Assembly: GCA_963779615.1 (NCBI GenBank)
Contig: CAVZZA010000001.1
Coordinates: forward strand, 288,001 to 352,000
Length of the DNA stretch: 64,000 nucleotides
From: an uncultured Nitrososphaeraceae archaeon
GTDB lineage: Archaea > Thermoproteota > Nitrososphaeria > Nitrososphaerales > Nitrososphaeraceae
Reading direction: 5' to 3'
Shown: one piece after another, positions 1,832 to 28,523 of the stretch
Numbering within the stretch: the first letter of the stretch is position 1
Layout of the letters: each line of letters opens with the position of its first letter
Notes under the pieces: generated by a model
Databases searched by the model: none
What the model was told of the DNA's origin: nothing
What the model saw: only the letters and a program-made list of their open reading frames with translations
Position numbers and translations under genes: made by a program

Positions 1832-1881
1832 TTATTAATATAAATTGCCTATATGATGTATATAGAATAACTGAACTATTT
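1832..1881 (-). promoter_or_regulatory. pstC promoter: TATA-like element plus CTATAT-type units at 1849, 1858, 1876
   Basis: + strand reads ttattaatataaattgcCTATATgatGTATATAGaataactgaaCTATTT, in the pstS-pstC intergenic region. Confidence 0.6.
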
Positions 1882-1890
1882 AGAAAAAAA

Positions 1891-2989
1891 TTATTTGGTG
1901 GAAATTGGATTTCCTTTAAAGGTTAAAGAATTCAATGTTTGGTTATTTAGTTCAACTACAGAACTAGGTAGCGGAACATATCCCAGTGGTGCTGAAAACT
2001 TTTGACCATCGGTTATAGCCCATGATATGAAATCAACAATAGCTGTTGCCTTTTGCTGATTTATAGTCGGATTTGCGCTTAATTCTTTATACAAGATGAG
2101 GTATGTGAGACTTGAGATAGGGTAAGAATCATGGCCTGGCGCGTTTGTGATTGTTACATTAGTCCACGAATCAGAGCCTTTTGGGAAAGTAGTGGCAGTT
2201 GCATCAACTGCAGCTATAGTGGAATTTATAGTCGGTAGAACAAAATTGCCATCTTTATTTTGAATAGTAGCATAGTTCATTTTTGAAGTTAAAGCATATG
2301 CAAGTTCTACATAACCAATAGAAAATTCTGAGCCTTTAATTGAAGCCGATACTCCCTCGTTACCTGGGGCACCTATGCCGTTTGGCCATGGTACTGATTT
2401 TGAAGTTCCCATCTTTTCAGACCATTCGGGGCTTACTTTAGATAGATAATCTGTAAACACAAATGTTGTACCAGAACCGTCAGAGCGATGAACTGTGTTT
2501 ATAGATTGTGAAGGCAAAGTAAGAGTTGGGTTTAACGCTTTAATTTTAGGATCATCCCATTTAGCGATTTTTCCTAAAAATATATCTGCAATTACAGGGC
2601 CTGATAATTTAAGGGAATTATCAGGAACTCCAGGCAAATTATATGATAGCACAACAGATCCAATGGTTTCTGGAATATGGACAGGGTTCACTGCTTTAGC
2701 AAATTCTGATTTGCTCAGAGGAGCATCTGTTGCCCCAAAATCAACAGTTTTTTCTAAAAATTGTTTAATTCCGCCTCCACTGCCAATAGATGCATAATTA
2801 ATATTTACATCAGGATTAACTTTTTTTGTACTCTACTCTCCATGTGTCTATTAAAGGAAATGGAAAAGTAGCTCCTGCACCATTAAGTGTTACTTGTTGT
2901 GCATTGACTGAATTAATCACAAGGGGCATTAACAACGCCGCCGTTAACAATGCCACACCGATCTTTTTAAAATTAGATATATTTGTCAT
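1891..2989 (-). CDS. pstS: Phosphate-binding protein PstS, frameshifted in an A7 run at 2821-2827
   Basis: ATG at 2989 gives a signal peptide and LNGAGATFPFPL. After removing one A the frame continues YASIGSGGG...HRSDGSGTT...GYVE...YPI. Confidence 0.92.
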
Positions 2990-3009
2990 TAAAAGTATTA
3001 TATTATTTA

Positions 3010-3059
3010 CTTATAAATCAATTATCTATATGATTACCATAAACTATATGCATCTAGTT
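3010..3059 (-). promoter_or_regulatory. pstS promoter: TATA box plus CTATAT units at 3026, 3044 (weaker unit at 3054)
   Basis: TTTATAAG on the minus strand ~25 bp upstream of the ATG, with CTATATG repeats further upstream. Confidence 0.6.
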
Positions 3060-3601
3060 AATTAAACACCAACACTTAAAGAATAATAGATTAAATGCAT
3101 ATTGTTTATCTACCTTAAATCTTAATTTTTGTCGATACAAAATTTACGTCTACGGTAGGGCATAATTTGGATAAATAACAAATGACATTAAAATTTAAAT
3201 ACCATTATAAAAAAATCACAAATCAATGTCATAACTATAACGTTATTTTAAAGGCCTATCATATACAAATCATTATCTAATGCACCCATGAATGCCTTGT
3301 CATAACACACTTCAACATTTTCTATTTAAACTGTCTCATTATTATTTGCTATCCTGGTAACACAATTGATCTCTTGTTAATACATAAGATGTATCAATAA
3401 GGGCAAGTTGAATTGGACTGCCTTGGATTTTAAAAAAGCAAATATGGTTATTGAGGTCTTTTTATTTATATACATATATTTATTCCCCTCCTCATTGTTA
3501 TGTTCATGGAAAATCCACCATCTAGCAGTGAATTTAGTAAGGCTCCTGCTAATATAATGAAAAACTGATGAGGGTTAATTGGTTTTATGGTCTATTTCAT
3601 T

Positions 3602-5041
3602 TTATGTGTTTGGTATTTTCATCAATAGTAACTGACCCCCTTCGTTTAAAGTGTGTGCCTGAACATCTAACATCCAGGTCCCTTCACCAAAAAACTCTGA
3701 AGCATCGAAAATACCGCTTGACTCCCATTCACCATGGTCTGCATTTTGATCTTCGTATTGATTAACATAGCCTATAGTTTTAAATTCATTGGTTTTTAAA
3801 TCCAGATTAATTATTTTCGCATTATTTATAACGTTGTAAGGACTTGTGGGTTTGTAACGATTATAATCATTATGATCTTCTTGAATCATTATGCTGTTTA
3901 AACTTGTATCAACATTATCCGGGTTTATCATCATGTCATGGCCAGGGGCTCGGGGGTCATCCCCATCTGCGAAAACTTTAATCGTCGCCTTGGTTGGGTC
4001 AATAGGGTCATTAAATGTAAATTGATATATTCTGCCATTTGTGAAGTTTTGTCCATTGACTGACGAAGGCGAAATTTTTTGATCATCTTCGTCCACATCA
4101 CTACCAGTTTCTACCATGTAAACGATATTGTTAAACCCATTTCGTTTGTCTGTTGCTCCATCTTCAGGTCGAATAAATTGAAATCCACCCTTATCTATTG
4201 CTTCATTATCCAATTCAGTTTCATTTTGAGTCATGTAATTCCATTCAAGAGGAATAAATTTTCCATTGACTGTTCCGTTACCGTAGTACAGGTTATTCCA
4301 TGATGATTGAGTATTGGATGTAGAGTTGTTTTCTATACCAAATACGTATAGGTTTCCTTTACCATTTAATAAATCATTAGGTGAATTTGCCATATACATA
4401 TAAAGTTCAGATTCCGTGGGATCACCATCTTCGAATGCAAGCATTACTGTTTTGTTTGCAGTGGAGAAATATGGGATATGGATAGTGTTTTCATGAGAAA
4501 ACTTTCCTAACCAGGGTAATTCTTTTACGGTGTTGTTTGTTGCATCTATTGATACAACAAGACCATCATTTGTTTCCTCGTTGGTAAAATACATTGGGTG
4601 AATAAAACCATAACCCTTTGCTAAATAACTAGAACAAAGAGCTTCATATCTTTCTGAGCCATTAATAACCAATCCTGCATCAATTATTGACGGGTTAGAT
4701 TGGTTTAGTGTGAGTTTTGAAACCTTTGCAAACCCATCTTGTCCTGTTTCGTTTTCAAGCTCATGATTAACAAATAAATCCATTTTTCCTTTTTCAGTTT
4801 GGAATGCACCTATACCATCTGGATTTTGAGGAAAATTGAACCCAGTAGTGAGATTATCGTTTGTGGTAATTAATGCATTTATTGTACTATTATATGGAAC
4901 ACTTGATGCCAATGTTACATAGTTTTTTTTTGAAGTTTTAAAAGAGTCGCTATATGCATTTTCGTAAGCAAATAAATTGCATGGAATTAACAACAACGAA
5001 ACTGTTGTTACCACCATCATAATACCGTTAATTAGGTTCAT
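3602..5041 (-). CDS. phoX: Secreted PhoX/DUF839-family alkaline phosphatase
   Basis: Signal peptide; NPDG, VNHE, LCS, HEN, RPEDGA, NPDNV, IQED, WESSG and DVQAH motifs typical of PhoX-like beta-propellers; sits upstream of pst. Confidence 0.75.
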   Translation of the reverse strand: MNLINGIMMVVTTVSLLLIPCNLFAYENAYSDSFKTSKKNYVTLASSVPYNSTINALITTNDNLTTGFNFPQNPDGIGAFQTEKGKMDLFVNHELENETGQDGFAKVSKLTLNQSNPSIIDAGLVINGSERYEALCSSYLAKGYGFIHPMYFTNEETNDGLVVSIDATNNTVKELPWLGKFSHENTIHIPYFSTANKTVMLAFEDGDPTESELYMYMANSPNDLLNGKGNLYVFGIENNSTSNTQSSWNNLYYGNGTVNGKFIPLEWNYMTQNETELDNEAIDKGGFQFIRPEDGATDKRNGFNNIVYMVETGSDVDEDDQKISPSSVNGQNFTNGRIYQFTFNDPIDPTKATIKVFADGDDPRAPGHDMMINPDNVDTSLNSIMIQEDHNDYNRYKPTSPYNVINNAKIINLDLKTNEFKTIGYVNQYEDQNADHGEWESSGIFDASEFFGEGTWMLDVQAHTLNEGGQLLLMKIPNT

Positions 5042-5097
5042 CTAATTATAATAAATTTGATCAGATTTTATTCTTTATCATCATATATTTAGTGCAT

Positions 5098-5123
5098 CTA
5101 TAATCTACTATGTTATCTATATG
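5098..5123 (-). promoter_or_regulatory. CTATA-type repeat array upstream of phoX (units at 5098, 5108, 5117)
   Basis: CTATAAtctaCTATGTtatCTATATG. Confidence 0.5.
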
Positions 5124-5309
5124 CACATCTTTTTTATCCATGTGAGCCCGGGTCATAATTCATAACTAATAAAGCTAGCCTAGAGGAGTATCATATTTTG
5201 GTGAAACAAACTACAATACAAAAGAATAGCAACAAATTGTTCATCATCCATTCTAATTGGCATTTTGCATACCATAGGGTTGATTGACTGCCAAGCAGGG
5301 ATAATCAGG

Positions 5310-5720
5310 CTAAAAGTCATTGTCGCCGCCGCCGTCCTGAAACAGCGGAAGCGCCTTTTGCACGGTGAAAAGAAGCCCTTTGGCGTTGATGCCGAATGCC
5401 TTGTCGAAGTGGTCTTCAGAGGTTTCCCCCAGGGGGGTCCAATTCCCCAATGCCGGCGTTGGCGAACAGAATGTCTATGTGGCCCTTCTGTCCCTCCTTC
5501 ACAGTGGCATACAGCATGTCAAGGTCCGCATGGTTTGAGACGTCCCCCTGTACACCGGCGATGCTTTTGCCTATTCGCCTGACTGCCGAATCGAGTTCGC
5601 TTTGGCGGCGACCGGTGATGAACACATATGCGCATCTTCTACAAACCGCTTGGCCGTGGCAAGGCCAATGCCGCTGGTTCCGCCCGTTATGACCTCAACT
5701 TTTCCTTCCGGCCTTTTCAG
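5310..5720 (-). pseudogene. Short-chain dehydrogenase/reductase fragment, frameshifted and GC-rich
   Basis: [17 protein letters not shown] / [10 protein letters not shown]...GDVS...DILFANAG / [22 protein letters not shown] spread across frames; no C-terminus. Confidence 0.8.
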
Positions 5721-5916
5721 GGTATTCTAATCGTAACGGTAGACTTTAAGTTTGCAAAGGCGGAGAAAGAGACGTTTGGTCCCTACGTTTACTAGATTTG
5801 CGGTTATATGAGACGCCGGCTAATTTCCTTTCCAACGGCAATGGCTGATTGGTTTGCTGCATTTGGATAATGGCCAAAACGAGAACCCATATCTGACATA
5901 TGGGGCATATAGTGTC

Positions 5917-8476: not shown

Positions 8477-10240
8477 TTACCCTGGACTCTTAAATGCAGC
8501 CTTGGGAAAGCCAATCTTTATTGGATGCCTAAAAGATGAGTGAATCATGACCAATTCCCCCCTGTTTAACCTGACGATGTTGTTTTTTGTGCTTTCATCC
8601 AGGTTTGAATATGGCTCTGTGGATAACTCAGATATTCCTAATTTCCCTGTTATGTGTAATCCAGTATTTTCCTGTAACTTGTAGTCGGTAGCGCTTTTGA
8701 ACTGCTGCGCAGAAAACAGAATTGTCCCTCTGGATCTTCCCGCAATTATGGTTCTCATGATCTGATCTGAAACTGCACTTTTTCCAAAAGGGGATTTGGG
8801 TATGTATCTGTTAATCTCGTCAATAAACACAAAAATATATGGAGGCTTTTCTTTGTTTTTGATCCTGTCGCCTGTATCGCCATTTGCGCTGTCATTAGGG
8901 GAATCAAACGGGCTTGAAGAGTACAATTCATCGATGCTTTTCATCACATCCCCGACAACAAACGCTTGTTCCTCCACAGAAGATATTGTCGCCACATCTA
9001 TCACAAAGACCTGGCCTGATTTGATTTTCCTTATTTCCCCGCCAAGGTAAGTGCTTGTCACTTTTTTGTCAATGAACATTGGGGACCTCCTCATTCTTTG
9101 TAGTTGACCTAAAAAGTGCAACAGGGAGGATTTGTGTGAGACTATCGATTCGGGATATCCACTAAATTCATACAAGTCAGTCCATGTTCTTATCTCCTTT
9201 CCAGTGTTTTCCCTTAGTGGCCAGGATTCATAGATGTAATCTATGATTGATGAGAGGTTAAAACGGGTGTCATATGCCTCATAGAATAGCAATTCAAGCC
9301 TATCGTAAACATCCTGCAACTCATAGGAGTATGTTTTGAAATTTTTTGGTATGTGCATAGAATTGGGCCTGCCATCTTTGCCTCTTGGCAAAAAATAAAC
9401 TACATTCTCAAAAGGCTCCAACTCCAAATCAAGGATGTTAAATAAATCTTCTGTTCTCTCCTTGATGTCTGTTGGTTTTTGGTCTATGTGTAGCAGATCC
9501 TGTTCCTTGGTGTTGAAAATGACCAGTGCTATGTTCTCCTTCTTCTTTTCAAAAAGTGTTTGATAAGCCGATTGCAATAGAAACAAAATGTAATTGCTTT
9601 TCCTATTTCCTGAAATCCCTGAAGCATTTACGTGTGCTGTATCGGGACCAGCCAAATAAGTCAATGCTAATGAAATGGGAACCTGCAAGCCATTTGTTGT
9701 TTCTATAACCCCTGCAGGAATCGGGTCTACCATTTCTGGAATTCCTAGAGCGAAAATAATCTCATCTTCTGTGGCAAATCTAACGGGTTTGCCTATGCCT
9801 ACTGGAAAGTTTATAGAAATAGCCTCCTTACGGCCTTCCACTTTTGCCCCAGTGTTTGCCATTATCCCCACTTTTGCCAATACCGACCCTTTTGGGGAAT
9901 CGCTGCATAATATTTGTTCTTGTTTTTCTGGGTCCTTTTGGCAATCCGTAACATAATCAGCATAAACATTTTCTGCAACTGCCTGCAACTCCTTTACAAT
10001 CCCGATTGTTTTGCTGTTGTGCAAATTGTCAACTGTAACAAAATCAAAAGAGTTTACCATTGTGTTGGGCTTAACGGCAAACCAGAAGCCATCCATGTTG
10101 TTGAGGAATCTTTTTGATGCTATGGTTTTTCCAACATCCTCAGGTGAGCTTGAATCCGTCGAAATCTTTTCGTCATTCAGATTTGCTGGTGTTGACCTGA
10201 TTAAATGAGCAACCTCATCTTTCTGGTACTTTAAACTCAT
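8477..10240 (-). CDS. HerA/FtsK-superfamily ATPase with HAS-barrel-like N-terminus
   Basis: HVNASGISGNRKSNY (Walker A region), IFNTK, FIDEINRY (Walker B) and GRSRGTILFSAQQ. Confidence 0.8.
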   Translation of the reverse strand: MSLKYQKDEVAHLIRSTPANLNDEKISTDSSSPEDVGKTIASKRFLNNMDGFWFAVKPNTMVNSFDFVTVDNLHNSKTIGIVKELQAVAENVYADYVTDCQKDPEKQEQILCSDSPKGSVLAKVGIMANTGAKVEGRKEAISINFPVGIGKPVRFATEDEIIFALGIPEMVDPIPAGVIETTNGLQVPISLALTYLAGPDTAHVNASGISGNRKSNYILFLLQSAYQTLFEKKKENIALVIFNTKEQDLLHIDQKPTDIKERTEDLFNILDLELEPFENVVYFLPRGKDGRPNSMHIPKNFKTYSYELQDVYDRLELLFYEAYDTRFNLSSIIDYIYESWPLRENTGKEIRTWTDLYEFSGYPESIVSHKSSLLHFLGQLQRMRRSPMFIDKKVTSTYLGGEIRKIKSGQVFVIDVATISSVEEQAFVVGDVMKSIDELYSSSPFDSPNDSANGDTGDRIKNKEKPPYIFVFIDEINRYIPKSPFGKSAVSDQIMRTIIAGRSRGTILFSAQQFKSATDYKLQENTGLHITGKLGISELSTEPYSNLDESTKNNIVRLNRGELVMIHSSFRHPIKIGFPKAAFKSPG

Positions 10241-10318
10241 TGTTTATACTTAATGAGAGAAATTTATTAATATAGATTACATATAGAAAGAATATAGAAT
10301 AAACATAAAGTAAGTTAA

Positions 10319-10480
10319 CTATATAGGAGAAAAATATTGTGTGGAAACTGGTTTTCCGCTAAGGGCCAGGGAATTCAATGTATGTTTGTCTAGGTCTACC
10401 ACGGAGGAGGGTAATGGAACATATCCCAATGGTTTTGAATACTTTTGTCCATCGGTGATAGCCCAAGTTATAAAATCAAC
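10319..10480 (-). pseudogene. pstS: PstS C-terminal remnant
   Basis: Translates VDFITWAITDGQKYSKPLGYVPLPSSVVDLDKHTLNSLALSGKPVSTQ, versus PstS VDFISWAITDGQKFSAPLGYVPLPSSVVELNNQTLNSLTFKGNPISTK. Confidence 0.9.
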
Positions 10481-10899
10481 ATCATTATCCACCGACATTT
10501 ACACTGCAATAATTATAATGGTGGCGTTAATCAAGATAATAACCTATTTGGCTTCAGAATATGTATCAAAAAGAACCACCTGTAACCAATTAGATGATTA
10601 AATGCCATATTCTTGTCGGCCAAAGTTGTCATGTCCATCATTACGAACTTCTCCTAACTTCTGTTGAAATGGCAATAATTATTCAGTTGGCAGTTAGCTT
10701 GACCGGCAAATGCAAGAAATACCGTAATGTGGATTGCAAACTTCGTGTTAACGTGGATGTTGACTTTGTAAAATATTGCCGGTAAGTGATTTTATGGTAA
10801 TGTAGTTGCGATGAGCTTCAACAATAACCTAGTCAAGTTCTTTTTTAGATGTTAAATAGAAGATGTCTTATAACATTTATTTAAATACAGTAAACCTAG

Positions 10900-10978: not shown

Positions 10979-11683
10979 TTATAGACTATATTTTTTCCTA
11001 AATGTTGAGGCGATGATGGACGTTCCCATAAAGGTGGCGGTCCAATACAGCCATAGGTTTTCCACCATTCCCCCCGACAACAAAGCAGGGGCCAAGGACC
11101 TGGCAGGGTTCATTGATGCTCCGGATATAAATGCCAAAAAGAATATGTCCAAGCCAACGATTCCAGCAATAACAATACCGCCAAAACCTCTCAAGCCCTT
11201 TGTATATACCACCACCAAGATTACAGCCATCAATAAAGCAGAAGCCAATACCTCCACCCCAAATATCAAAGGCAAAGGATACGCATAGTTCGGTGAGTTG
11301 GCCCCCAGAAAAGCCTCATTCCCTATGGCATACTTTACAAACAAGCTTGCCAATAGCGCCCCTATTATCTCTGCAGATATGTAAAGCAGCAACTGCCTTT
11401 TTGTTATGTGCTTTGTAATCAGGAAACCCAAGGTCACGGCAGGGTTAAAATGCGCCATGGAGATTTTGCCAAACAGGTATACGCCTATCGCTACTCCAAC
11501 AAATGGCGCAAATGCAATAAAGGGAATTCCCAATACCCCGTTCATTTTGGCGTCAATAACTACAGAGCCAGTGGCCAATACCACGACAATAAAAGTTCCA
11601 ATTACCTCAGCAATAAACTTCTTTTGGCTTGAGGACAGGTTATCCCTCAATGTTGTGACCAGGCTATTTGTTGCGTTTTTCAC
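10979..11683 (-). CDS. MIP/aquaporin-family channel in an arsenic cluster
   Basis: Two NPA motifs (HFNPAVT, SMNPARSLAPA); six hydrophobic segments. Confidence 0.92.
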   Translation of the reverse strand: MKNATNSLVTTLRDNLSSSQKKFIAEVIGTFIVVVLATGSVVIDAKMNGVLGIPFIAFAPFVGVAIGVYLFGKISMAHFNPAVTLGFLITKHITKRQLLLYISAEIIGALLASLFVKYAIGNEAFLGANSPNYAYPLPLIFGVEVLASALLMAVILVVVYTKGLRGFGGIVIAGIVGLDIFFLAFISGASMNPARSLAPALLSGGMVENLWLYWTATFMGTSIIASTFRKKYSL

Positions 11684-11753
11684 CGTCTTCTCTTCTCTTC
11701 TGTTAGTTTACAACCTGATTTTCCATGACAACATATAAAATATTGTGTAAGCT

Positions 11754-12209
11754 TTAGTTTTCCTTCTCATCTTTGCCAATTTGTTCTACTGCTTCCTTTA
11801 TTCTCCTCTTGATTTCATCCCTTATCTCCCTTACCTTTTCTATGGGCTTGTCCTTAGGGTCCTCAATTCCCCAGTCCACAACTTTAGGGACAAATAAAGT
11901 AGGGCAGAAATCTTTATCCATGCATCCCATGTTGATTATTTTTGTTGCGTTTCTTATCATGTCTTCGGTAAGCTCCTTTGGTTTTTGGCTGCGGATATCT
12001 ATACCAATTTCTTTCATCACGTCTACAGCAACGGGATTGATTTGGGATTTATGGCGTGTCCCGGCGCTTATTGGTTCATAATCGTCGGTACCATACTTTC
12101 TAAAAAAGCCCTCTGCCATTTGGCTGCGCCCTGCATTCTCTACACACACAAAGAGTATCATCTTTTTTGTTTTGTTTTCAGCATATTTACTTTTGAATGA
12201 GAGCTTCAT
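11754..12209 (-). CDS. arsC: Arsenate reductase, LMW-PTP family
   Basis: LFVCVENAGRSQMAEG, SAGT, MGC...CP and WGIEDP motifs. Confidence 0.88.
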   Translation of the reverse strand: MKLSFKSKYAENKTKKMILFVCVENAGRSQMAEGFFRKYGTDDYEPISAGTRHKSQINPVAVDVMKEIGIDIRSQKPKELTEDMIRNATKIINMGCMDKDFCPTLFVPKVVDWGIEDPKDKPIEKVREIRDEIKRRIKEAVEQIGKDEKEN

Positions 12210-12237
12210 TTTTCAATGCCATCTTGTTTTTTTATTG

Positions 12238-13026
12238 TTATTTAATCGCCTTCACAGCAAGGCTGGTAATTTTTCTTCCCCCCCCACCATTCCCTTCCAT
12301 CTCGGTGTATGGTTTTTCATCCAGCGCCTCAACATTGGTAAACCCTGCTTCCCTTATGGCATTGACATAGTTTTCTTTTGTTAATGCGCCATCAATGCAA
12401 CTGCACCAATTATCCGCATTTACAGAGTACTCGTTCATTTCTTTAGATGTGACCAAATCCGATATCACCATTTTTCCAATCCCATTTGGCTCTAGAATCC
12501 TGTGTATCTCGAATGCATCTACCTTATTGGATGCAAGGTGGATAACGCAATTGCTTATGACTACATCTGCACTGTTATCCTCAACAAGTATTCTTTTCTC
12601 AATGTCCCCTTGCCGGAACTCTACGTTTTTGTAATTGTATTTTTTAGCGCTATTTCTTGCTTTTTCTAAAATCTTATCCGTCATGTCTATTCCAACGACC
12701 TTTCCGTTATCCTTGACAATATTGGCAGCCAAGAACACATCAATGCCGGCCCCCGAACCCAAGTCAACTACCGTATCTCCCTCTTTTATATGGGCAAATT
12801 TTGTGGGGTTACTGCATCCTACCCCCAGAATAGCGGGTTGGGGTATGGCCGCCAATTCCTCTGAATCATAACCGATTGCTTTTGAAGAATTAATTTGGGA
12901 ATCGACATTATTTTCAGGACTGCAACATTCTGAAGGCATGCAACAAGAATCTGAATTACCAAATACGGCGATTGTGCCACATCTTTCTTCGATTTTATTC
13001 TTTATGTTTTTGTCACTAGTGGTCAT
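12238..13026 (-). CDS. arsM: Arsenite S-adenosylmethionine methyltransferase
   Basis: N-terminal CC...CC, LGVGCSNP, DLGSGAGID, SNCVI and WCSCIDGA. A few substitutions in conserved positions could indicate early decay. Confidence 0.85.
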   Translation of the reverse strand: MTTSDKNIKNKIEERCGTIAVFGNSDSCCMPSECCSPENNVDSQINSSKAIGYDSEELAAIPQPAILGVGCSNPTKFAHIKEGDTVVDLGSGAGIDVFLAANIVKDNGKVVGIDMTDKILEKARNSAKKYNYKNVEFRQGDIEKRILVEDNSADVVISNCVIHLASNKVDAFEIHRILEPNGIGKMVISDLVTSKEMNEYSVNADNWCSCIDGALTKENYVNAIREAGFTNVEALDEKPYTEMEGNGGGGRKITSLAVKAIK

Positions 13027-13030
13027 ACCT

Positions 13031-13049
13031 TAGTTTACATTAGAAACTA
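13031..13049. promoter_or_regulatory. Palindromic candidate operator TAGTTT-N7-AAACTA between arsM and the HxlR gene
   Basis: Inverted repeat lying between the arsM start and its TATA-like element. Confidence 0.4.
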
Positions 13050-13081
13050 TTTAAGTTGGTAAGAGTAAAATAGTAAAGCAA

Positions 13082-13519
13082 GTGAAATCAGGTAAACAAA
13101 AGGGTTCTAAAGCAGTCAATAGAAATGATTTATCCAAGGATAGCGCATCCAAGTTACCAACTGTTCACAATGATAATAATTCTTGCGATTTCAAAGGATA
13201 CGATGTTGATGTATTGATGAAAGAAACATCATCGCTAAGAAAATTAGTAACAAAGAGAGGAACACTAGAAATTTTGTTACCATTGTGTTGTACTACCGAT
13301 TCTGTAAGATACCTAAAATTCAAAAAAACAATGAAGGGTTTCAGCAGCAAAACCCTTGCAACAAGGTTAAAAGAGCTAGAAAGAAGTGGAATTTTAAACC
13401 GACAAGCATACAACGAAATCCCACCCAGGGTAGAATATCGATTGACAGCAAAGGGACAAGAATTAACAGAATCCATAGTGGGTTTATTGCAATGGATGAT
13501 TAAATGGTCAACAAAATAA
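13082..13519 (+). CDS. HxlR-family winged-helix regulator
   Basis: GFSSKTLATRLKELE...EIPPRVEYRLTAKGQEL motif; divergent from arsM. Confidence 0.9.
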   Translation: MKSGKQKGSKAVNRNDLSKDSASKLPTVHNDNNSCDFKGYDVDVLMKETSSLRKLVTKRGTLEILLPLCCTTDSVRYLKFKKTMKGFSSKTLATRLKELERSGILNRQAYNEIPPRVEYRLTAKGQELTESIVGLLQWMIKWSTK

Positions 13520-15114: not shown

Positions 15115-16017
15115 TTAAACAAGTTTTTTAACCTCTGGAAGATCTCTACACATATTCACAAATTGCTTTTGCTTATTCTCCAAATCTTTGTTCAATTTAT
15201 TGGCAAGTTCTACTATATATTGTTCAGAGCCAGCTTTTTTCAGCAATTTCAAGGCATTGTTAGTATTATTTATATCCTGCAAGACTTGCTGAACTTTTTC
15301 CAAATCCTTTGCAACAGTTATGGCTTTATTACTTTGCTGATTAGGAACTTTGTTATCGCTTTGTTCCTTACTATTTGATAGAATATCTAAAGTAAGCTGT
15401 AATTTTTCCAACATCTTTAGGAATCTGTTAGTTTTTCTGAGGGCATTATTATCCAATGTGTTGTCTGAAACAATTATTCTAATTTTGTTTTCTAATTTTT
15501 TTGTTAAACGATCCAACCTCAGAATGAATTTCTTTGTTCTCTTTTGTATGGAGAAGCTACTGAATTTACTATCAAATGATGTTAATTGAAGAGAATTAAA
15601 ATCGAAAATAATTTTATTTGCTTTTGATAATAAACCTTGTTTTTCAACTTTAAGATAGTTTTCAAAATTTCTTTTATGAGTTTGTTCACTATCTGTAGTT
15701 TTATTCTTCATTATTTCTTTATCGATTATATCAAATGCTTTCAATTTTCGCTCTAGTTTATAGAGAGATATAGATATTTCTTCAATCTCTTTCAAGGTCT
15801 TTTGTTTTCTGATTTTCTTTGGAAAAACTATTTGGTTGGTTCCCAAATCTTTTAGTGTAGAGCTTATATCGGAAAAATCTTTATCGTTATTATTCTTCAA
15901 ATAGTTACTGGCCTTATTCTTTAATTCTATCACATTTTTTTCATAATTGTTTACATACCTTTTAATCACATTTTCTTCCAAGGCAACTATATTGCTGGTC
16001 ATAAATTTCTCTAACAA
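15115..16017 (-). CDS. Degenerate CHAD-domain protein (start may be ATG 16002)
   Basis: Aligns by eye with the CHAD protein at 26777-27688 (PKKIRKQK...LYKL...AFDII; LEKVQQVLQDIN) but lacks the His/Arg motifs. Confidence 0.65.
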   Translation of the reverse strand: MLEKFMTSNIVALEENVIKRYVNNYEKNVIELKNKASNYLKNNNDKDFSDISSTLKDLGTNQIVFPKKIRKQKTLKEIEEISISLYKLERKLKAFDIIDKEIMKNKTTDSEQTHKRNFENYLKVEKQGLLSKANKIIFDFNSLQLTSFDSKFSSFSIQKRTKKFILRLDRLTKKLENKIRIIVSDNTLDNNALRKTNRFLKMLEKLQLTLDILSNSKEQSDNKVPNQQSNKAITVAKDLEKVQQVLQDINNTNNALKLLKKAGSEQYIVELANKLNKDLENKQKQFVNMCRDLPEVKKLV

Positions 16018-16030
16018 CGGTTATATTTAG

Positions 16031-16066
16031 GTATATAGTCTATATTCATCTATATAGTCTATATCG
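16031..16066. promoter_or_regulatory. Four-unit CTATATAG-like array (16031, 16040, 16050, 16059) in the divergent CHAD / kinase intergenic region
   Basis: Contains a perfect 14-bp direct repeat TATATAGTCTATAT at 16032 and 16051. Confidence 0.7.
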
Positions 16067-16180
16067 TCACACATTATATATGATGATATTAAATCAGTCT
16101 TAAGTGGAGTAGACATAATTACGACAAATATGTTACATTTTGTGTTTGTCAATTTAAAAATAGATCAATGAGGGAACATA

Positions 16181-16939
16181 ATGCAAAATAATAAAACAAA
16201 ATCTAGTAAAGACATTGGAACTCTCATAGTGGTTGAGGGGATAGATGGGTCTGGAAAGTCAACTCAAATACACCTGCTGGATAAGTGGTTGAGATCAAAA
16301 GGGTATAACGTTTTTTTTACCGAGTGGAACTCTTCCGCATCTGTTAAGGAAATTACCTCCAAGGGCAAGAAAAAGGCCATGTTGACCCCAACAACTTTTT
16401 CTCTCCTTCATGCAACGGATTTTGCTGACAGGTATGAAAGGAATATTTATCCGCTGTTGAGGGCGGGGTACATCGTGCTTGCGGACAGGTACGTCTATAC
16501 CGCGTTGGCAAGGGACATTGTTAGGGGATGCGACAAGGGATGGGTGGAAAACATCTACAAGTACGCAATTAAACCGGACATAATTTTTTATTTTCAGGTG
16601 CCTGTAGAAACTGCAGTCAACAGAATCATAACAAGCAGGCCAAAACTAAAATATTATGAGGCTGGAATGGACTTAAAGTTAAGCAAGGATGAACATGAAA
16701 GCTACAGGATATTCCAAGGGAGAATCGTTGATGAATATGAATCAATGGTAAACCCGGAGGGGTTCACAGTAATTGACGGCACCATGGACATTGAAAAACA
16801 ACAAAACTTGGTAAGAAAACGCGTATTAAAGTCCCTAGGCAACAAAAAAACACTCCTGGGTGACACACTTCAAGAAGGCAACGATATAAAAGTGGTGACA
16901 AGAAACGAAACCAAAAAAGCCAATCAGCAAAAACAATAA
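16181..16939 (+). CDS. Thymidylate-kinase-like protein, probable PPK3 catalytic-type subunit
   Basis: VEGIDGSGKST, TEWNSS, LLHATDFADR, LADRY, YYEAGMD and FQGRI motifs; tandem with a second Tmk-like gene. Confidence 0.8.
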   Translation: MQNNKTKSSKDIGTLIVVEGIDGSGKSTQIHLLDKWLRSKGYNVFFTEWNSSASVKEITSKGKKKAMLTPTTFSLLHATDFADRYERNIYPLLRAGYIVLADRYVYTALARDIVRGCDKGWVENIYKYAIKPDIIFYFQVPVETAVNRIITSRPKLKYYEAGMDLKLSKDEHESYRIFQGRIVDEYESMVNPEGFTVIDGTMDIEKQQNLVRKRVLKSLGNKKTLLGDTLQEGNDIKVVTRNETKKANQQKQ

Positions 16940-16940
16940 A

Positions 16941-17645
16941 ATAAAGTTCATAGATACAGGAATAAAGTATCTTCAGGACATAGAGATAAAGGGGTCTTTT
17001 GTAGTGATAGAGGGTCCCGATGCATCAGGAAGAAGCACACAGATTGAAAAAATAACAACAAAACTTGAGGCTGACGGGCATGCTGTTGTAAATGCAGGGT
17101 TGCGGAGATCGGATCTTGTTTCCAAAGGGATTATGGAGGCAAAAAGAAATTATTTGATAGGGAATAGGACAATGACCCTTTATTACGCGGCAGATTTTGC
17201 AGACCAGCTGGAAAAAAAAATCATTCCGGCGCTAAAGGCAGGTTTCATTGTGATTTCTGACAGATACATATACACACTGATAGCGAGAAGCTCTGTCAGG
17301 GGAATAGACAAAAACTGGCTGCACAGCTTATTTAGTTTTGCCATCAAACCGGATTTGGTTTTCCATTTGGATGTAGATCCGCATAACTTGATACACAGGG
17401 TGTTTCAGAAAAACTACTCCCTGGACTATTATGAGTCGGGGGTTGATCTTGGGATTTCCAGCGACATTTTTGACTCATTCATAAAATACCAGTATGCACT
17501 GAAAAGGGAGTTTGAAAGGATGAGGGCAAGGTATAACCTGATTAACATAGACGGCAATGAAAGCATTGAGAAGGTGTACCAGCAAATCCAATCACAGATA
17601 GACGACTTTTTAATATCGGAAAACAAGGAAACGGTAATAAGGTGA
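16941..17645 (+). CDS. Second thymidylate-kinase-like protein, probable PPK3 regulatory-type subunit (start uncertain)
   Basis: Variant P-loop EGPDASGRST, YAADFADQLE, SDRY and DYYESGVD. The frame is open from 16899 with no ATG/GTG/TTG before 17004. Confidence 0.78.
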   Translation: MKFIDTGIKYLQDIEIKGSFVVIEGPDASGRSTQIEKITTKLEADGHAVVNAGLRRSDLVSKGIMEAKRNYLIGNRTMTLYYAADFADQLEKKIIPALKAGFIVISDRYIYTLIARSSVRGIDKNWLHSLFSFAIKPDLVFHLDVDPHNLIHRVFQKNYSLDYYESGVDLGISSDIFDSFIKYQYALKREFERMRARYNLINIDGNESIEKVYQQIQSQIDDFLISENKETVIR

Positions 17646-18555: not shown

Positions 18556-19590
18556 TAGATCTCGCATAATTAGCATAAACAGATTTATGACCATCAGATC
18601 ATTAATTCATGTCCTTTCCTTGCTCTCATATGACAGGTTGTCCAAAAACCCATTGCTTTTCAAGTCATCCACCGGCTGACGGTAAAGGAGTTTGATGACA
18701 TTATGATATGAAGATGTTAAAAAGACAAGGCAAGCATGAGATCAGGCGATTATCCAAAAGAAATGATAGTAGAAAACGATCCATGGGTGCTGGGCGACAT
18801 TTCAAGATGGATGTTAAAAACAGGCTCCTGGTGCTTTTGGGCTACTATTGCCGCCTTTACACAACCTACCCGTTGGCCGGCTTTTTGTTTGACTTGGACC
18901 AGAGTAACGTCTGCAGGGATATTCAAAAGATTGAGTCGCGGGTAAGAAAATGCCTGCCAATTCCGCAAAAGACGCACAGATTGTCAAAAAGGATGCTCAC
19001 ACCAGAAGGGGTTGAAAAAATGTTTCCAGGCTTTCTGTCCTTCATAGACCGCACAGAACAGCAGATACCAATGCCTCACAAAAAAAGAAGAAAGGCGTAT
19101 TATTCAGGCAAGAAGAAAAGGCATACCGTAAATACACAGCTCATGGTTAACAATCAGGGTATCATCATTCACAAAACAGGCCACAAGAAAGGAAAAAGGT
19201 ATGACTACAACATATATAAAAATAATCACCCTGTGATTCTAATGCAAGTTGTCAGCGTGTTTGACCGTGGTTATCGAGGTTGAGAGAGACTTTCCTGACC
19301 AAAAGTCATCCTTGCCAAACAGAAAGATGAGAAACCAAGAGTTGACTCAAGAGGAAAATAAGTACAACCAGAACCACTCTAAAAAAAAGATGGTGATAAA
19401 GTATACCATTTGCAAGATGAAAAAGGACAGGATAATGGGCTACATCTTTAGAAACAGTCTCAAAAAGTATGACAAGATATCAGACATAGTTTCAGGACTG
19501 GTAAACTACAGAGCATTGTCATCTTTTTAGATAGGCATCAGTCTTGCCGTACTGATGGGACATACTGTTTCTGATTATGCAAAAGATCTA
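18556..19590 (+). mobile_element. Degraded IS5-family (ISL2-like, HTH + DDE_Tnp_4) element
   Basis: Frameshifted transposase (GAGRHFK, FLFDLDQSNVCRDI, YYSGKKKRHT, D.GY.G); imperfect IRs TAGATCT.GCATAAT at 18556 and ATTATGCAAAAGATCTA ending at 19590. Confidence 0.85.
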
Positions 19591-19785: not shown

Positions 19786-20054
19786 CAGTAGAGTAGATTA
19801 AGTAAACACATTACACACTTTATTTACGATAGAAAAAGATATCGAGTTGTTGAACGTATATTTACCATTTAGAGACATGTAGTCTATATAGATAACACTT
19901 TTTATTTGATATTTACTCTTACTATGTATGTATTGTAAAATATATGATAAAAATCAAGAATTGACTTATAATCAACATAACAATCATCGTATTAAACACA
20001 AGGCAGTAAAAAGAGAAATTAACCAAAAAAAAGTGGAGGCGCTATAATACAGTA

Positions 20055-22142: not shown

Positions 22143-22212
22143 ATTAGCAATCTTTTTTAAAAATGTTTTATTATATATTAAAAATTAACCATTTTACTAT
22201 ATTACGAATATT

Positions 22213-23186: not shown

Positions 23187-23378
23187 TTACCAATAAATAC
23201 CTTTTTCTGAATCTGTTAGTTCTGAGCCACATTTAAAACATTTAAGATGGCAAACAGTATATTCCCCCATAATAAAACCACATTTAATACATTCAATTTT
23301 TTGTTTTGAATTACCTTCTTTGGACTCATCCAACTTAATATAATGAATCAATAAATTGGGCACAATCACTATTTTCAT
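23187..23378 (-). CDS. Small zinc-ribbon protein
   Basis: CIKCG...CHLKCFKCG; TATA at 23402-23409 and CTATAT units upstream. Confidence 0.6.
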   Translation of the reverse strand: MKIVIVPNLLIHYIKLDESKEGNSKQKIECIKCGFIMGEYTVCHLKCFKCGSELTDSEKGIYW

Positions 23379-23816
23379 TACCTTATAAACAGCAAAGTAA
23401 ACTTTAAACGTTATCTATATACAATACTAATTCTATATAGATAACTATGGCAACACTTAAAACAGATAATTCACATTATTCATTCCTAAATCAAGAACTT
23501 TATACAGTAGTCACAGTTGTAAATATGGCAAATGATTGTAATAATATCGAATTGATAAAATCAACAAATTTATAAATATTTACTATTAAGGATAACATTT
23601 ATAAATCGATGTATAAATTAGTAAACAACTAAATAAAATTGTCAAGTAAATTGTTAGATAACAAAAAACAGAACATTGTTAAAATTTTGAAGATATATTT
23701 AACTGTATAACAATACAACAATCTTTTTAATTTTATTTATAGTATATTATACTATATAAACATAATAGTCATATTTTGTATAGACTATATGGATAATTTT
23801 TATATTTTAATATAGT

Positions 23817-24306: not shown

Positions 24307-25215
24307 TTATGCTTGTTATCGTTTTCATTTACGAGTGGCATCGGTCTATCATAAGAACAAGAATAAACAGACATTAACAAATATTCCAGATGAACATGGG
24401 ATGAAATTGTTTCAGTTTTACCAAGGAAAAACCCGATAATGCGATTGGTCGTCCAATTGTTCCCTACAGAAAAGTAGTGGACGGTATTCTATACATCCTA
24501 AGAACAGGGTGCCAGTGGAAGATGCTGCCTGCAGAGTATGGTTCAGGTTCAACATGTCATCGACGATTTCAGGGGTGGGCGGGGTTAGACATTTTCAAAA
24601 AGGCATGGATCAGGTTGTTGCAATCATATGATAACAAACAAGGTATCAAGTGGACATGGCAATCGCTTGACAGCATATCCATAAAGTCTCCTTTAGGTGG
24701 GCAATGACCGAAGGAAGCAATCCCACTGACAGAGGCAAACTGGGCACAAAAAGGCATGTTTTAACGGATACAAAAGGAATCCCACTCTCAGTTGTCATAT
24801 CATCCGCAAGCACTCATGATACAAAACTAGTAACAGATGTAATGGATAATACAATTATCAAACGATCATCATCATCAAAGAAACGTAAATTATCCAGAAA
24901 AAGAAAACTGCAACACCTGTGTCTTGATAAGGCGTACAGTTCCAAGACAGTAAAACAGGAAATCATCAACCGAGGATATGTGCCGCATTTACCGTACAAG
25001 AGAAAAAGAGGAGAGGGCAAGACAGAAACACAAAAGATGTCAAATCGAAAAAAACATCCTGCCAGAAGATGGGTTGTGGAAAGAACCAACTCATGGCACA
25101 ACCGATTTAGAAAACTGCACACAAGATATGAGAGGAAAGCAGAGAACTATCTTGGGTTGGTACAGTTCTCATGTTGCATCATCATCTACAGAAAGATAGT
25201 TTTGGGATAGGCTCT
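24281..25215 (+). mobile_element. IS5-family (IS427-like) element with two overlapping transposase ORFs
   Basis: Perfect 16-bp IRs AGAGCCTATCCCAAAA (24281-24296 / 25200-25215); TA target duplication; [20 protein letters not shown] and RWVVERT motifs. Confidence 0.93.
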
Positions 25216-26051: not shown

Positions 26052-26669
26052 GGCTCTGCTCACTTAATGATATCTAATTCCCTGTTATGAAAATATGCAA
26101 AAAGTTGTAGCCAATTATGAACATGTTTCAATTTACAACTCTTTCCTTGGCATGGAAAGTAATCATCGAACCTTCGGTTCTGTCCTTGATGCACTGCATT
26201 GTTCTCTGAGAATTTTTTTACGAGGCGAATGGATGTGATGCTGTAGTTTCAGGAATTTGCAAGCCTGCCGGTACCATATGTACCCCCATTTGTTGAAACA
26301 GGATGTTTTCCATAATTAGGGACCAGGTTTGAAATATGTCGTTCTGCTACAAACATGTTTCGCTCTTTGATATGCTTATTGCAAGAATTTTTTTGTTATT
26401 AGGCTCGATAGTAACCCATAACCATATGTACTTCGAACCAACCTTAATCAATGTCTCGTCTATAATAAATTCCAAAACTTTCTTTTTATTAGACGATATT
26501 CTTTGAGGACTATATTTTTGAATCCAGTTCCAAATAGAAACGTGAATCCTTTTAACCAAACTGGAAAGTCTTTCTGATGTCCTTCTTAGAGAGAGACCTA
26601 AAAAATACAAATACAAACCATGACATATGTACCTCTGAAGATGTAGGTTTATCGTAGGTGAACAGAGCC
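26052..26669 (-). mobile_element. Degraded IS6-family element
   Basis: IRs GGCTCTGCTCACTTA / TAGGTGAACAGAGCC; YLYFLGLSLRRTSE...IHVSIWNWIQK...IIDETLIKVGS; frameshifted 3' half. Confidence 0.85.
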
Positions 26670-26776
26670 TTTTCCGAATAGAGAAAAAATAAAGATCACT
26701 AACTTATTATCATTTGTATACAATCAGCTTTTACTAGCCTCACAACAATAGACCATATTAAATAATCCTCATATCC

Positions 26777-27688
26777 TTATAAAAAATTGTTGTCGGCATC
26801 TAAAAGATCAGATTTACAATATTGGACGAACTCGTCATATTTGTTTTTTCTTATCATGGCAATATTATTTTCAGCGATAACGCTGTTATGTGTATTATGT
26901 CGTTTTAAACAGGCAGTTGTTATATCATAATCATGAACGTTTCCAAGCATATCCTGAATTTTTTCTAATTTATCTATCAGGCTAGAAACATTATGATTAT
27001 CTTCATGATCGTTCTTATCAACTACCTCATTTTCGTCAATACTTTCTTTATTCTTATCCTTATTGCTTAAAACAAGCTCCAGTAAATAACGCAATTTCTT
27101 GGCATCCTTTCTTATCTCATGTAACTCCTCAATTTTTTCGCTATTGTTGATTACAATGGGAAAGTTTTTCTCCATTCTGCAGACAAATTTACCAACAATT
27201 TTATTATATCTTTTAATTAATTTCTTTTGCACCGTACCACGTTCATATAGCTTATTATCGTTATTTATATGGGTAACATTTAACTTTCTTAGGCCAATGG
27301 CAACGGATAACGCCTTATCAAGTTTCCTATTTTTTTGTCTTTTAATTGATTTACTTAGTATTTCAAGCTGTTGTTCATCCATCTGCCCTTCCTTGTTTAA
27401 CTTTTCTAGAACAATATCAAAATCCCTGATTTCACTATTTAGTTTAAAAAGGCGTTTGCTATTAAATACATATTTTTTTATTCTTTTTTTCCGGATTTGC
27501 TTTGGGCTGGCGCTATACGATGCTTCTAGCCTTCTAAATGCTGTTCGTATATCGTGAATGTTTTCTTCATTAGGATCTTTAATGTACTCATTCAATCTCT
27601 TGCCTACCTTTTGGATATTATGGACATAGTTATCAAAAAAAGTATCTAAATTAATAGAATGCGGTATATCAAAAATTAACCTTGACAC
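26777..27688 (-). CDS. CHAD-domain (polyphosphate-binding) protein
   Basis: IHDIRTAFRRL, IRDFDI, LHEIRKDAKKLRYLLE and IQDMLGNVHDYD motifs. Confidence 0.92.
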   Translation of the reverse strand: MSRLIFDIPHSINLDTFFDNYVHNIQKVGKRLNEYIKDPNEENIHDIRTAFRRLEASYSASPKQIRKKRIKKYVFNSKRLFKLNSEIRDFDIVLEKLNKEGQMDEQQLEILSKSIKRQKNRKLDKALSVAIGLRKLNVTHINNDNKLYERGTVQKKLIKRYNKIVGKFVCRMEKNFPIVINNSEKIEELHEIRKDAKKLRYLLELVLSNKDKNKESIDENEVVDKNDHEDNHNVSSLIDKLEKIQDMLGNVHDYDITTACLKRHNTHNSVIAENNIAMIRKNKYDEFVQYCKSDLLDADNNFL

Positions 27689-27862
27689 AGATAAAACAAT
27701 ACACTTGAAATTATTTTAATATTTTACTACAAATAAAATAAAAAAACTCCCGGCATGTATTCAGTAGTACATATAAAAACATCGATTTGACACCAATTAG
27801 TTTGAATGGCATTATAATCCTATCAAAATATGACATTATTCAACATATACGACTATATTCTA

Positions 27863-28459
27863 TTACCCCTCCTTTGTCTTTATTTTCCTTAAAATGGAGT
27901 TTCTTACAAAGTCACTTGTCACAGATTTTGGTATGTTACAATATGATGAAATACATTCTGTTATTTTATTTGAGCATGTTATATTTTTACACAAAGATAG
28001 ATTTTCTTTAAAGGATTTGACTGGATCTTGGGATGAAAAAGCCCATGTCAGCATCATTCCTAGAACTTTTTCTTTTACATGTGGAGGCTTTTCTGATAGC
28101 AAAGCATTTAATTCATCCATTGAAGGAGCCAATTCTCCAATACCGTCATAATAAATGTCGTCATCACTTTTAGAATCAATGTCAGTGTTTTTCCTACATT
28201 TGGACTGAGAATTAAACATACCATTGTTGTTTAATTCCTTATCCCCGCTCTGAAGATCATTACTACCCTCTGTTTTCAGGTCACTGGAAGACGGCACAAG
28301 AGGTCCATGGGAATATACCAAATTGTTTGACTTATTGTATATCTCTCCTTGGTTATCATGTACATCTTTATTGTGGCGAAAAGCATTCCATTTCCTATCG
28401 AAAGTATTTCCACAACCAGAACAATAATATGGCGAGTTTTTCAAATATACCCTTTTCAC
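27863..28459 (-). CDS. C2H2 zinc-finger protein
   Basis: YYCSGCGNTFDRKWNAFRHNKDVH followed by a helical C-terminal domain. Confidence 0.75.
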   Translation of the reverse strand: MKRVYLKNSPYYCSGCGNTFDRKWNAFRHNKDVHDNQGEIYNKSNNLVYSHGPLVPSSSDLKTEGSNDLQSGDKELNNNGMFNSQSKCRKNTDIDSKSDDDIYYDGIGELAPSMDELNALLSEKPPHVKEKVLGMMLTWAFSSQDPVKSFKENLSLCKNITCSNKITECISSYCNIPKSVTSDFVRNSILRKIKTKEG

Positions 28460-28472
28460 ATATTTATGTAAT

Positions 28473-28523
28473 CTTTAAATAGTCTCACTATATAATCTAT
28501 ATAATTGCATATAAACTATATAG
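28473..28523 (-). promoter_or_regulatory. TATA box plus four-unit CTATATA-like array (28488, 28497, 28507, 28516)
   Basis: ctttaaat...CTATATAAtCTATATAAttGCATATAAaCTATATAG; same 9-10-9 spacing as the 16031 array. Confidence 0.7.

Follow-up and report, generated by a model that had tools for sequence, protein, structure and literature searches.

Which DNA site, and which protein, couple gene expression to phosphate supply in ammonia-oxidising archaea? The question is raised by a 64,000-nucleotide stretch of the genome of an uncultured Nitrososphaeraceae archaeon (contig 1, 288001-352000; hereafter the window), because in its left 30 kb the intergenic DNA of the pst phosphate-uptake region and of several other genes carries recurring copies of a short CTATATAG-type unit (hereafter the box). 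In soils and oceans, where phosphate is often scarce, ammonia-oxidising archaea are drivers of nitrification, and to our knowledge no phosphate regulator or operator has been described for them, and very few for any archaeon. A sequence-only reading of the window had taken the boxes as marks of a dispersed phosphate regulon, and here the window is compared with the rest of its genome (3.17 Mb, 36% G+C), which belongs to the genus Candidatus Nitrosocosmicus, and with relatives comprising 24 genomes of that genus and 16 from other families (numbered with a G, as in G015). The boxes adjoin the core promoters of pstS, pstC and pstB, of two further genes (a polyphosphate-related CHAD-like one and an RNase H-like one) and of a single branch of a C2H2 zinc-finger family, and they are kept at those places in relatives whose surrounding DNA has diverged. 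Based on the conservation at pstS in the genus and in other families, we propose that the boxes very probably constitute a phosphate-linked operator kept across the order, and it appears likely that they are the operator of a Pho-type regulon conserved across the ammonia-oxidising archaea of this order.

The evidence that carries this proposal comes from the pst promoters. In the left 30 kb of the window pstA, pstC and pstS lie on the minus strand, with pstB and phoU just beyond the left edge, and the genes and their boxes (matrix scores in bits) are as follows:

1..810, minus strand: pstA, from the translation of its open reading frame (ORF), which continues past the left edge of the window
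812..1808, minus strand: pstC, in two frames with a shift near 1448; tblastn with the PstC of a relative gives the pieces 1808-1449 and 1456-815
1891..2989, minus strand: pstS, in two frames with a shift near 2821
-127..-106 in window coordinates: two-unit box in the pstA-pstB spacer, 12.4 and 7.9 bits
1847..1885: box array in the pstS-pstC spacer, 6.7, 13.6 and 8.5 bits
3024..3053: pstS promoter boxes, 11.2 and 8.1 bits, 18 bp apart, with TATA-like TTTATAAG at 3011-3018 and the ATG at 2989

In six relatives of the genus the locus was extended to 15-20 kb, and in all six there are arrays ahead of pstS as well as in both spacers, pstS-pstC and pstA-pstB; an exact CTATATAATACTATAT or a near variant recurs in the pstA-pstB spacer of those relatives whose loci were read and about 2 kb from pstS in further genomes. 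The layout upstream of pstS is kept amid diverged DNA in the 16 genus relatives whose region is fully readable, as a footprint of ATATAG (often the full palindrome), 12 nucleotides, ATATAG and AATTGATTAATAA, with the ATG about 25 nucleotides further on. A matrix trained on the units listed for the window found a site of at least 11 bits in all 15 usable pstS upstream regions of the genus and at least two sites in 13 of them, whereas among the controls the corresponding counts were 1 and 2 of 21 for the upstream regions of PPK3-type kinase genes, and none of the five scorable HerA upstream regions had a site. As this matrix is circular for the window itself, a second one was built from the relatives only; its core is TATATAGA, or TCTATATA on the opposite strand, with a C of weak conservation ahead of it, which makes the unit a directional half-site that occurs singly, in inverted pairs (for example in G036), or in arrays with 9-11 or 18-19 bp between units.

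The two broken reading frames bear on the state of these genes. The pstS of relatives is a single open frame of about 370 amino acids, and soil metatranscriptome contigs from two runs of two studies, 95-99% alike to the window, lack one base at 2821, while one such contig, weak at a depth of 2.89, lacks one base at 1448. Therefore, the pstC and pstS frameshifts may be assembly errors or strain-specific breaks. The soil contigs cover 1-3000 in pieces and leave 3001-4400 uncovered, and they are uninformative on transcript starts, strand and induction.

Beyond the genus, boxes were found at four of five pstS loci of other families. In the family labelled f13, 41 genomes of 27 genera were searched and 28 had pstS; after two second tandem pstS copies had been dropped, 27 loci were scored, one for each genome other than G036. 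An exact CTATATAG is present at 24 of these 27 loci, and 24 of the 25 boxes lie 59-92 bp upstream of the pstS start, the other at 243 bp. This corresponds to 25 sites in 9.5 kb of upstream DNA versus 12 in 97 kb elsewhere in the loci, the reversed 8-mer giving 0 and 2; by our count, 10 of the 12 sites elsewhere directly follow pstS and precede either pstC or another pstS copy. Across Nitrososphaeraceae, 35 of 69 usable pstS upstream regions contain a site of at least 11 bits, versus 1 of 69 coding controls, and other genera show variants such as two ATATAG units 10 or 19 bp apart, CTATAT-5-CTATAG-4-CTATAG, or CTATAGATCTAT. The notion that the boxes mark phosphate genes is thus borne out at pst promoters in the genus and in other families, far outside this genome. 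The f13 loci (L226-L252) also share, between CTATATAG and the ATG, a TAATCTATG followed after 8-10 nucleotides by TGTAAATAA, a stretch that probably represents a degenerate second unit and a TATA box.

The boxes are also non-random within the genome. With at most one mismatch, CTATATAG occurs 44 times in the window versus 31.4 +/- 5.1 times in 100 shuffles, none of which reached 44. Genome-wide, exact same-strand CTATAT pairs peak at spacings of 9, 10 and 11 bp (6, 5 and 3 pairs) and of 17, 18 and 19 bp (3, 4 and 6 pairs) over a background of 0-2, and 12 of 30 such pairs fall in the window, which makes up 2% of the genome, with one more 124 bp beyond its left edge. By the window-unit matrix, the genome has 11 three-unit chains scoring 22 bits or more, versus 0, 0 and 0 in three order-3 Markov genomes, and clusters of at least 26 bits by the relatives-only matrix number 11 versus 0, 0 and 1 in simulated genomes, four of the 11 being located at 1-30 kb of the window. 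Between -200 and 30000, 11 intergenic sites of at least 11 bits were counted, versus 1.68 expected from the remaining intergenic genome (Poisson p=1.6e-6), and with the relatives-trained matrix at least two sites precede 27 of 1990 genes of this genome. Strong box clusters, which may or may not be part of the regulon, were also noted outside the window: upstream of a paralogue of transcription factor B (TFB) (contig 5 at 170746), beside a 97-amino-acid C2H2 protein (contig 3 at 1103069), and upstream of a 414-amino-acid protein without a Pfam match (contig 4 at 48387).

Every unit that the sequence-only reading had named is present in its place, those at 3054, 5098, 5108, 19865, 19875 and 28507 with at least two mismatches, and the shared 9-10-9 spacing is correct for the arrays at 16031/16040/16050/16059 and 28488/28497/28507/28516. 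Its impression, gained by eye, that arrays are absent upstream of the housekeeping genes at 40-64 kb held as well, none of the best 40-50 clusters lying within 30-64 kb. The ten array places that it listed fared unequally: seven are solid, and three, at the PhoX-like gene, the receiver gene and an orphan site, are weak and do not rise above chance as arrays by the independent matrix.

Outside the pst genes, the places at which the boxes recur in relatives are the following, with the genes beside them:

3602..5041, minus strand: PhoX-like protein of 479 amino acids, named from an atlas lead
5096..5126: weak boxes upstream of the PhoX-like gene, 8.1 and 6.9 bits
15115..16002, minus strand: CHAD-like protein, 300-amino-acid ORF; the ORF reaches a TTG at 16017, and the probable start is the ATG at 16002
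16029..16068: four-unit array with 9-10-9 spacing, 8.4, 11.1, 11.8 and 6.1 bits, cluster score 31.2 bits
16181-16939 and 17004-17645, plus strand: tandem dTMP-kinase-like pair of PPK3 type; Pfam Thymidylate_kin, 7e-23 and 8e-23
23733..23794: boxes upstream of the RNase H-like gene, 6.5-9.0 bits
23817-24062: RNase H-like gene, shortened in the window; its G015 orthologue matches RVT_3 with E=1.3e-4
26777..27688, minus strand: CHAD-domain protein downstream of the C2H2 gene; Pfam CHAD, 1.2e-16
27863..28459, minus strand: single C2H2 zinc-finger protein (C-X2-C-X12-H-X4-H); Pfam zf-C2H2, E=0.0074, under the cut-off
28486..28525: four-unit array with 9-10-9 spacing before the TATA box of the C2H2 gene, cluster score 35.8 bits, the best in the genome
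28602..28620: GAGTNACTC-N-GAGTNACT dyad, an exact match versus 0.02 expected

The array at 16029..16068 abuts the TATA-like CTAAATATAA (16021-16030) of the CHAD-like gene, the start of which at 16002 is read from an alignment of upstream regions, and in the genus two or three units abut the TATA box in eight of nine entries with a readable 5′ end (seven genomes; two entries overlap in G023). The CHAD-like protein is missed by Pfam CHAD (PF05235) even with the E limit raised to 5, and its kinship is read from a BLASTP alignment with the CHAD protein of the window (282 residues at 23% identity, E=5e-8) and from the atlas, where, as a lead, 28 of its 30 nearest clusters are CHAD; hence the name CHAD-like. 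The spacer upstream of the CHAD protein at 26777..27688 contains one ATATAG hexamer about 170 bp off and no array. The earlier assignment of the 16029..16068 array to a CHAD/PPK3 divergon therefore stands for the CHAD-like gene, with its TATA box and conserved entries, and fails for the PPK3 pair, of which so few orthologue upstream regions carry sites and of which a second genome copy lacks a box. The tandem genes at 16181..17645 are a predicted PPK3-type polyphosphate kinase pair, being two adjacent dTMP-kinase-like genes in a polyphosphate and pst neighbourhood; such a pair occurs in 21 of the 24 genus genomes, within about 2-20 kb of pstS on shared contigs. On contig 3 the genome has a second PPK3 pair (916620-918033, 94% identity) and a second copy of the HerA-like gene (151959-153665, 90%), and neither has boxes upstream.

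At the RNase H-like gene, a two-unit array stands at the same place in all three loci with an orthologue (G015, G020 and G024). Orthologues of the PhoX-like gene exist in only 3 of 40 relatives, and boxes precede two of them (G020, 14.2 and 11.4 bits; G022, 11.4, 10.5 and 9.1 bits), while none was seen at the G013 orthologue, the upstream edge of which is uncertain. The PhoX-like assignment itself is a lead only: all 30 nearest atlas clusters form one PhoX-type set (score 0.96), and a PDB sequence search gave no match. Pfam likewise gave no match for the window's 479-, 587-, 300- and 142-amino-acid proteins, nor did NCBIfam for its C2H2, CHAD-like, PhoX-like and CHAD proteins.

The C2H2 gene belongs to a family of about nine paralogues in the genome, and its two closest paralogues (contig 2 at 23425 and contig 3 at 984706) share the layout of array, GTGAG and TATA box, the arrays before them being the two best outside the window. 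Orthologues in G005, G016 and G023 have two to four units upstream, and the gene counts as a conserved box target, perhaps also as a second-tier regulator. The GAGTNACTC dyad follows the family more closely. With at most one mismatch, eight of its nine matches in the genome lie upstream of C2H2 paralogues (besides the window, contig 2 at 23292; contig 3 at 551439 and 984852; contig 5 at 491647, 749734, 749883 and 840176), and it is found in most family members of the genus, mostly directly before the TATA box, with two adjacent dyad half-sites in about 18 of 28 C2H2 rows by our count, two of the rows overlapping one place. This dyad is probably the C2H2 family's own operator, separate from the boxes.

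The other box-bearing places in the window, with the genes beside them, are these:

8477..10240, minus strand: HerA-like ATPase; PDB 7f6d_B HerA, E=1.2e-17; no Pfam match
10266..10328: four-unit array before the HerA-like gene, 10.6, 9.5, 13.3 and 12.1 bits
10337..10480, minus strand: pstS remnant (C-terminal 48 residues), from tblastn with the PstS of a relative
19882..19893: single strong palindromic box, the orphan site, 13.5 bits; its two adjacent listed units are below 5 bits
21339..21350: single box upstream of the receiver gene, 10.4 bits
21401-21787: receiver-only protein; Pfam Response_reg, 4e-13
23187..23378, minus strand: small Zn-ribbon ORF of 63 amino acids with two CxxC pairs; weak Pfam zinc-ribbon matches, E about 0.007-0.009
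23413..23442: two strong boxes at the Zn-ribbon gene, 12.4 and 14.2 bits, 18 bp apart, as in the pstS promoter

The DNA at 10264-10481 is 73% identical over 218 bp to 1832-2038 (E=5e-36), that is, to the 3′ end of pstS with the pstS-pstC spacer, and the pstS remnant within it corresponds to residues 317-364 (54% identity, E=2.5e-15 by tblastn). No array precedes HerA in the 21 HerA rows of the relatives (one of them mis-extracted, without an upstream region) or in this genome's second copy. To judge by this identity, the HerA array was left behind by the duplication of a pstS-pstC junction and is not the target site for which it had been taken; as the array is such a relic, the HerA-like gene is a doubtful member of the regulon. 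An 86-amino-acid ORF at 10341-10601 on the plus strand overlaps this pst copy and is probably spurious. The Zn-ribbon array, also proposed as a target site in its own right, instead corresponds to the pstS-promoter array of relatives in which pstS is divergent to the RNase H-like gene, and aligns with it at E values of 8e-7 to 5e-3. As far as the alignments tell, the HerA and Zn-ribbon arrays are both leftovers of duplicated or relocated pst promoter pieces. The pst copy at HerA and the pstS-type array at the Zn-ribbon gene thus indicate that the pst neighbourhood was duplicated and broken up in the window, where promoter pieces of pst now precede unrelated genes and the regulon seems to have been enlarged and in part reshuffled. 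The RNase H-like gene and the 142-amino-acid gene adjoin pstS in relatives. The orphan box has no duplication partner within the window. The receiver gene is the only response-regulator gene near the phosphate genes, and a Pfam search found no output (DNA-binding) domain in its product.

As the protein that binds the boxes, the best candidate appears to be a fusion of an AbrB domain with PhoU domains, to which we assign about even chances. The genome encodes one such fusion on contig 1 (474742-475824; PF04014, 3.2e-10, and PF01895, 9.1e-21) and a second on contig 5 (776018-777106). AbrB-PhoU is present in 40 of 41 genomes and in all 17 genera, with 81-91% identity within the genus, the sole miss being G008, which is 85% complete. 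It stands beside pstS in four of seven non-genus genomes with pstS, with a box between both genes in G035 and G036, and within 1.5 kb of pstS at 5 of 28 f13 loci. In addition, all 21 genus orthologues have CTATATAT at -32..-25 from the start, and an exact CTATATAG occupies that position in G027, G032 and G038. The earlier suggestion of such a fusion as a candidate binder thus fits the genomic context: its domains, its near-universal presence, its adjacency to pstS in some genomes outside the genus and the box at its own promoter. In the mechanism we envisage, a sequence-specific regulator would bind the boxes on one face of the helix and couple transcription to phosphate status; the AbrB-type domain of the fusion would bind DNA, the sensing of phosphate or of the Pst transporter would fall to its PhoU domains, and units one helical turn apart would suit an AbrB-type dimer of dimers.

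Several findings weigh against this proposal, in part against the operator and in part against the binder. The pstS upstream region of the GC-rich genome G033 has no box, despite an adjacent AbrB-PhoU gene. Loosely defined arrays (at least three units with at most one mismatch at 9-11 bp spacing) are uninformative, CTATAT giving 43 chains and its commonest letter permutation 161. The best clusters outside the window adjoin a GNAT acetyltransferase gene, a DNA glycosylase gene beside an S-adenosylhomocysteine hydrolase gene, and the TFB paralogue, for none of which a phosphate link is evident. Searched across the 41 genomes, the exact two-unit pattern shows no genome-wide enrichment in relatives over the reversed control (15 against 24 in G010, 0 against 10 in G021, 14 against 6 in G000), so the regulon outside pst is small or lineage-specific. 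As to the fusion, the genus AbrB-PhoU gene lies about 186 kb from pst, each genome has two to five paralogues, and AbrB-PhoU also occurs in genomes where pstS was not found, so its presence alone says little; moreover, the box at its promoter could simply be a TATA box.

The strongest alternative keeps the boxes as a phosphate operator and assigns them to another binder, either one of two small winged-helix proteins encoded near phoU or an unrecognised factor; we regard it as unlikely, though deserving of attention. The two candidates (contig 1, 284111-284734 and 284738-285289) have weak matches to HTH_34 (7e-4) and RTP (2e-3), and they are syntenic with phoU in all six extended genus loci, where AbrB-PhoU is unlinked to pst. 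However, no match to the pair was found in the pst loci of G035, G036 and G037, in which boxes occur, and the pair stands beside NurA- and HerA-like genes, to which by our reading of the sequences it may belong. The region in question, 3′ of phoU (contig 1, 281631-286072), holds an HD-domain protein, the two winged-helix-like small proteins, a NurA-like gene and a second HerA-like ATPase gene, and is syntenic in the genus; the NurA and HerA labels there are our own.

The direction of control under the operator reading is a separate matter. The end of the proximal unit is about 8 nucleotides from the TATA box at pstS, 2 at the CHAD-like gene and about 5 at the C2H2 gene, and in the pstS-pstC spacer one unit merges with a TATA-like stretch. 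A site just upstream of the B recognition element (BRE) is the classical place for archaeal activators, and an activator role had been suggested for the boxes; yet the last unit abuts or overlaps the BRE/TATA region at several promoters, and repression fits at least as well. Such overlap suggests that the bound regulator would occlude TFB and the TATA-binding protein (TBP), resulting in repression at plentiful phosphate and in autorepression. Because the units abut or overlap BRE/TATA and the regulator's own box stands at its TATA position, we favour, with slightly better than even confidence, a repression that holds while phosphate is in good supply and is lifted by starvation, and hold activation to be a possibility of somewhat less than even weight.

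A more distant alternative is that the units are a special TATA-type element, read by TBP or by a TBP or TFB paralogue and stacked at strongly regulated promoters. The core of the unit is indeed TATATA, the box at the AbrB-PhoU promoter sits exactly at the expected TATA place, and one box cluster precedes a TFB paralogue. But the conserved letters of the unit are the flanking C and G/GA, a separate conserved TATA box follows the array at pstS, the CHAD-like and the C2H2 genes, and at -38..-20 of 1112 genes the enriched hexamers are TAAATA, TTAAAT, TTTATA and TTTAAA, while CTATAT has no positional peak. Apart from the AbrB-PhoU promoter, the boxes thus differ from the general TATA consensus of this genome, TTTAAATA/TTTATATA, and this explanation is improbable.

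Still less probable is that the C2H2 protein itself binds the boxes and autoregulates, as the arrays directly upstream of the TATA box at three C2H2 paralogues and at the orthologues in G005, G016 and G023 might suggest. The C2H2 family was found in the genus only (20 of 24 genomes, versus 0 of 16 elsewhere, with close homologues in just five genomes), whereas the pstS boxes are order-wide, and for this reason the protein was rejected as the box binder and is seen as a target; the family's GAGTNACTC dyad would also be the more natural autoregulatory site. Lastly, that the arrays arose by chance, without a function, in a rearranged region whose intergenic DNA is AT-rich and full of repeats is scarcely credible, since, for all the transposase fragments, pseudogene pieces and internal duplications there, the indistinct loose array definitions and the three weak listed sites, their position-specific conservation across genera and families in otherwise diverged DNA contradicts it, leaving room for chance only at isolated sites, for example those at 19882 and 21339.

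Returning to the boxes as a phosphate operator, a wider model can be put forward tentatively, its chances being somewhat below even: an order-wide regulon, independent of PhoB/PhoR, would act through AbrB-PhoU, an ancient one-component sensor and regulator, on pst and on the TATA region of its own gene, and in Nitrosocosmicus would have been extended to polyphosphate-associated CHAD proteins and to a genus-specific C2H2 branch with its own GAGTNACTC operator, forming a two-tier cascade.

Some further features of the region were noted. An arsenic-type cluster at 10979-13519 (a MIP channel, a low-molecular-weight, ArsC-like phosphatase, an S-adenosylmethionine methyltransferase and an HxlR-type regulator) lies between phosphate genes, and an ArsC-like gene is likewise found after pstS in G037 and ahead of AbrB-PhoU in G035. 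The stretch at 5180-5730 is G+C-rich, with broken frames resembling a short-chain dehydrogenase (a glycine-rich NAD-binding motif in the translation), and has the look of a gene fragment that is foreign or in decay; at its edges (5270-5633), several metatranscriptome contigs turn into unlike sequence. DDE transposase fragments at 18708-19530 and 24704-25210 flank the part in which gene order is unlike that of relatives.

The finding supplies a defined 8-bp box, a short list of promoters of conserved targets and a named candidate protein; the box could be used to predict phosphate-responsive genes in metagenomes, and, if the proposal is true, the widespread archaeal AbrB-PhoU "phosphate uptake regulators" would gain a function. 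In transcription-factor census papers, the sections available treat the PhoU family as merely putative phosphate-uptake regulators and do not name the AbrB-PhoU fusion as a class. A literature search, which lay largely outside subscription papers, found no description of this motif or of an archaeal AbrB-PhoU site. Earlier work on haloarchaeal pst promoters exists.

Among known systems, the candidate regulator resembles two. With AbrB/SpoVT regulators and antitoxins such as Bacillus AbrB and MazE it shares the PF04014 domain. AbrB-type members act as dimers or tetramers on AT-rich sites about one helical turn apart and are mostly repressors, often autorepressing. In contrast to AbrB and MazE, the candidate joins its AbrB domain to two PhoU domains, and its proposed site is a well-defined 8-bp palindrome or half-site. 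With bacterial PhoU it shares the PhoU domains (PF01895) and, in some genomes outside the genus, the linkage to pst, a classical phoU also following pstB here. Bacterial PhoU lacks a DNA-binding domain and acts by way of PhoR and PstB, and the fusion differs from it as well in scoring 65.7 bits against the curated cut-off of 130 of the PhoU equivalog.

The gene content of the locus recalls that of the PPK3 locus of Sulfolobus acidocaldarius, which, in the portion of the account available, has two tandem dTMP-kinase-like genes with CHAD, SixA, PstS and PstC neighbours; that portion also names Nitrososphaeraceae as PPK3 carriers and calls the regulation of polyphosphate and phosphate homeostasis in Archaea poorly understood (PMC12995831). 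Tandem dTMP-kinase-like genes with CHAD, SixA, PstS and PstC nearby are likewise present here, but the boxes here mark the CHAD-like neighbour and not the kinase genes.

The closest parallel is the bacterial Pho box of PhoB/PhoR and PhoP/PhoR systems, likewise a short box repeated at about a helical turn beside the core promoters of pst, phosphatase and polyphosphate genes of a dispersed regulon; here, direct repeats at about that period stand at the phosphate-uptake and scavenging promoters of pstS, pstC, pstB, the CHAD-like gene and PhoX-like orthologues. It differs in the box sequence, in the archaeal TBP/TFB promoters that it adjoins and in the one-component AbrB-PhoU candidate that would read it. 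In its logic the proposed operator is a bacterial Pho box, while the sequence of the box, the type of promoter and the class of the candidate one-component regulator are different.

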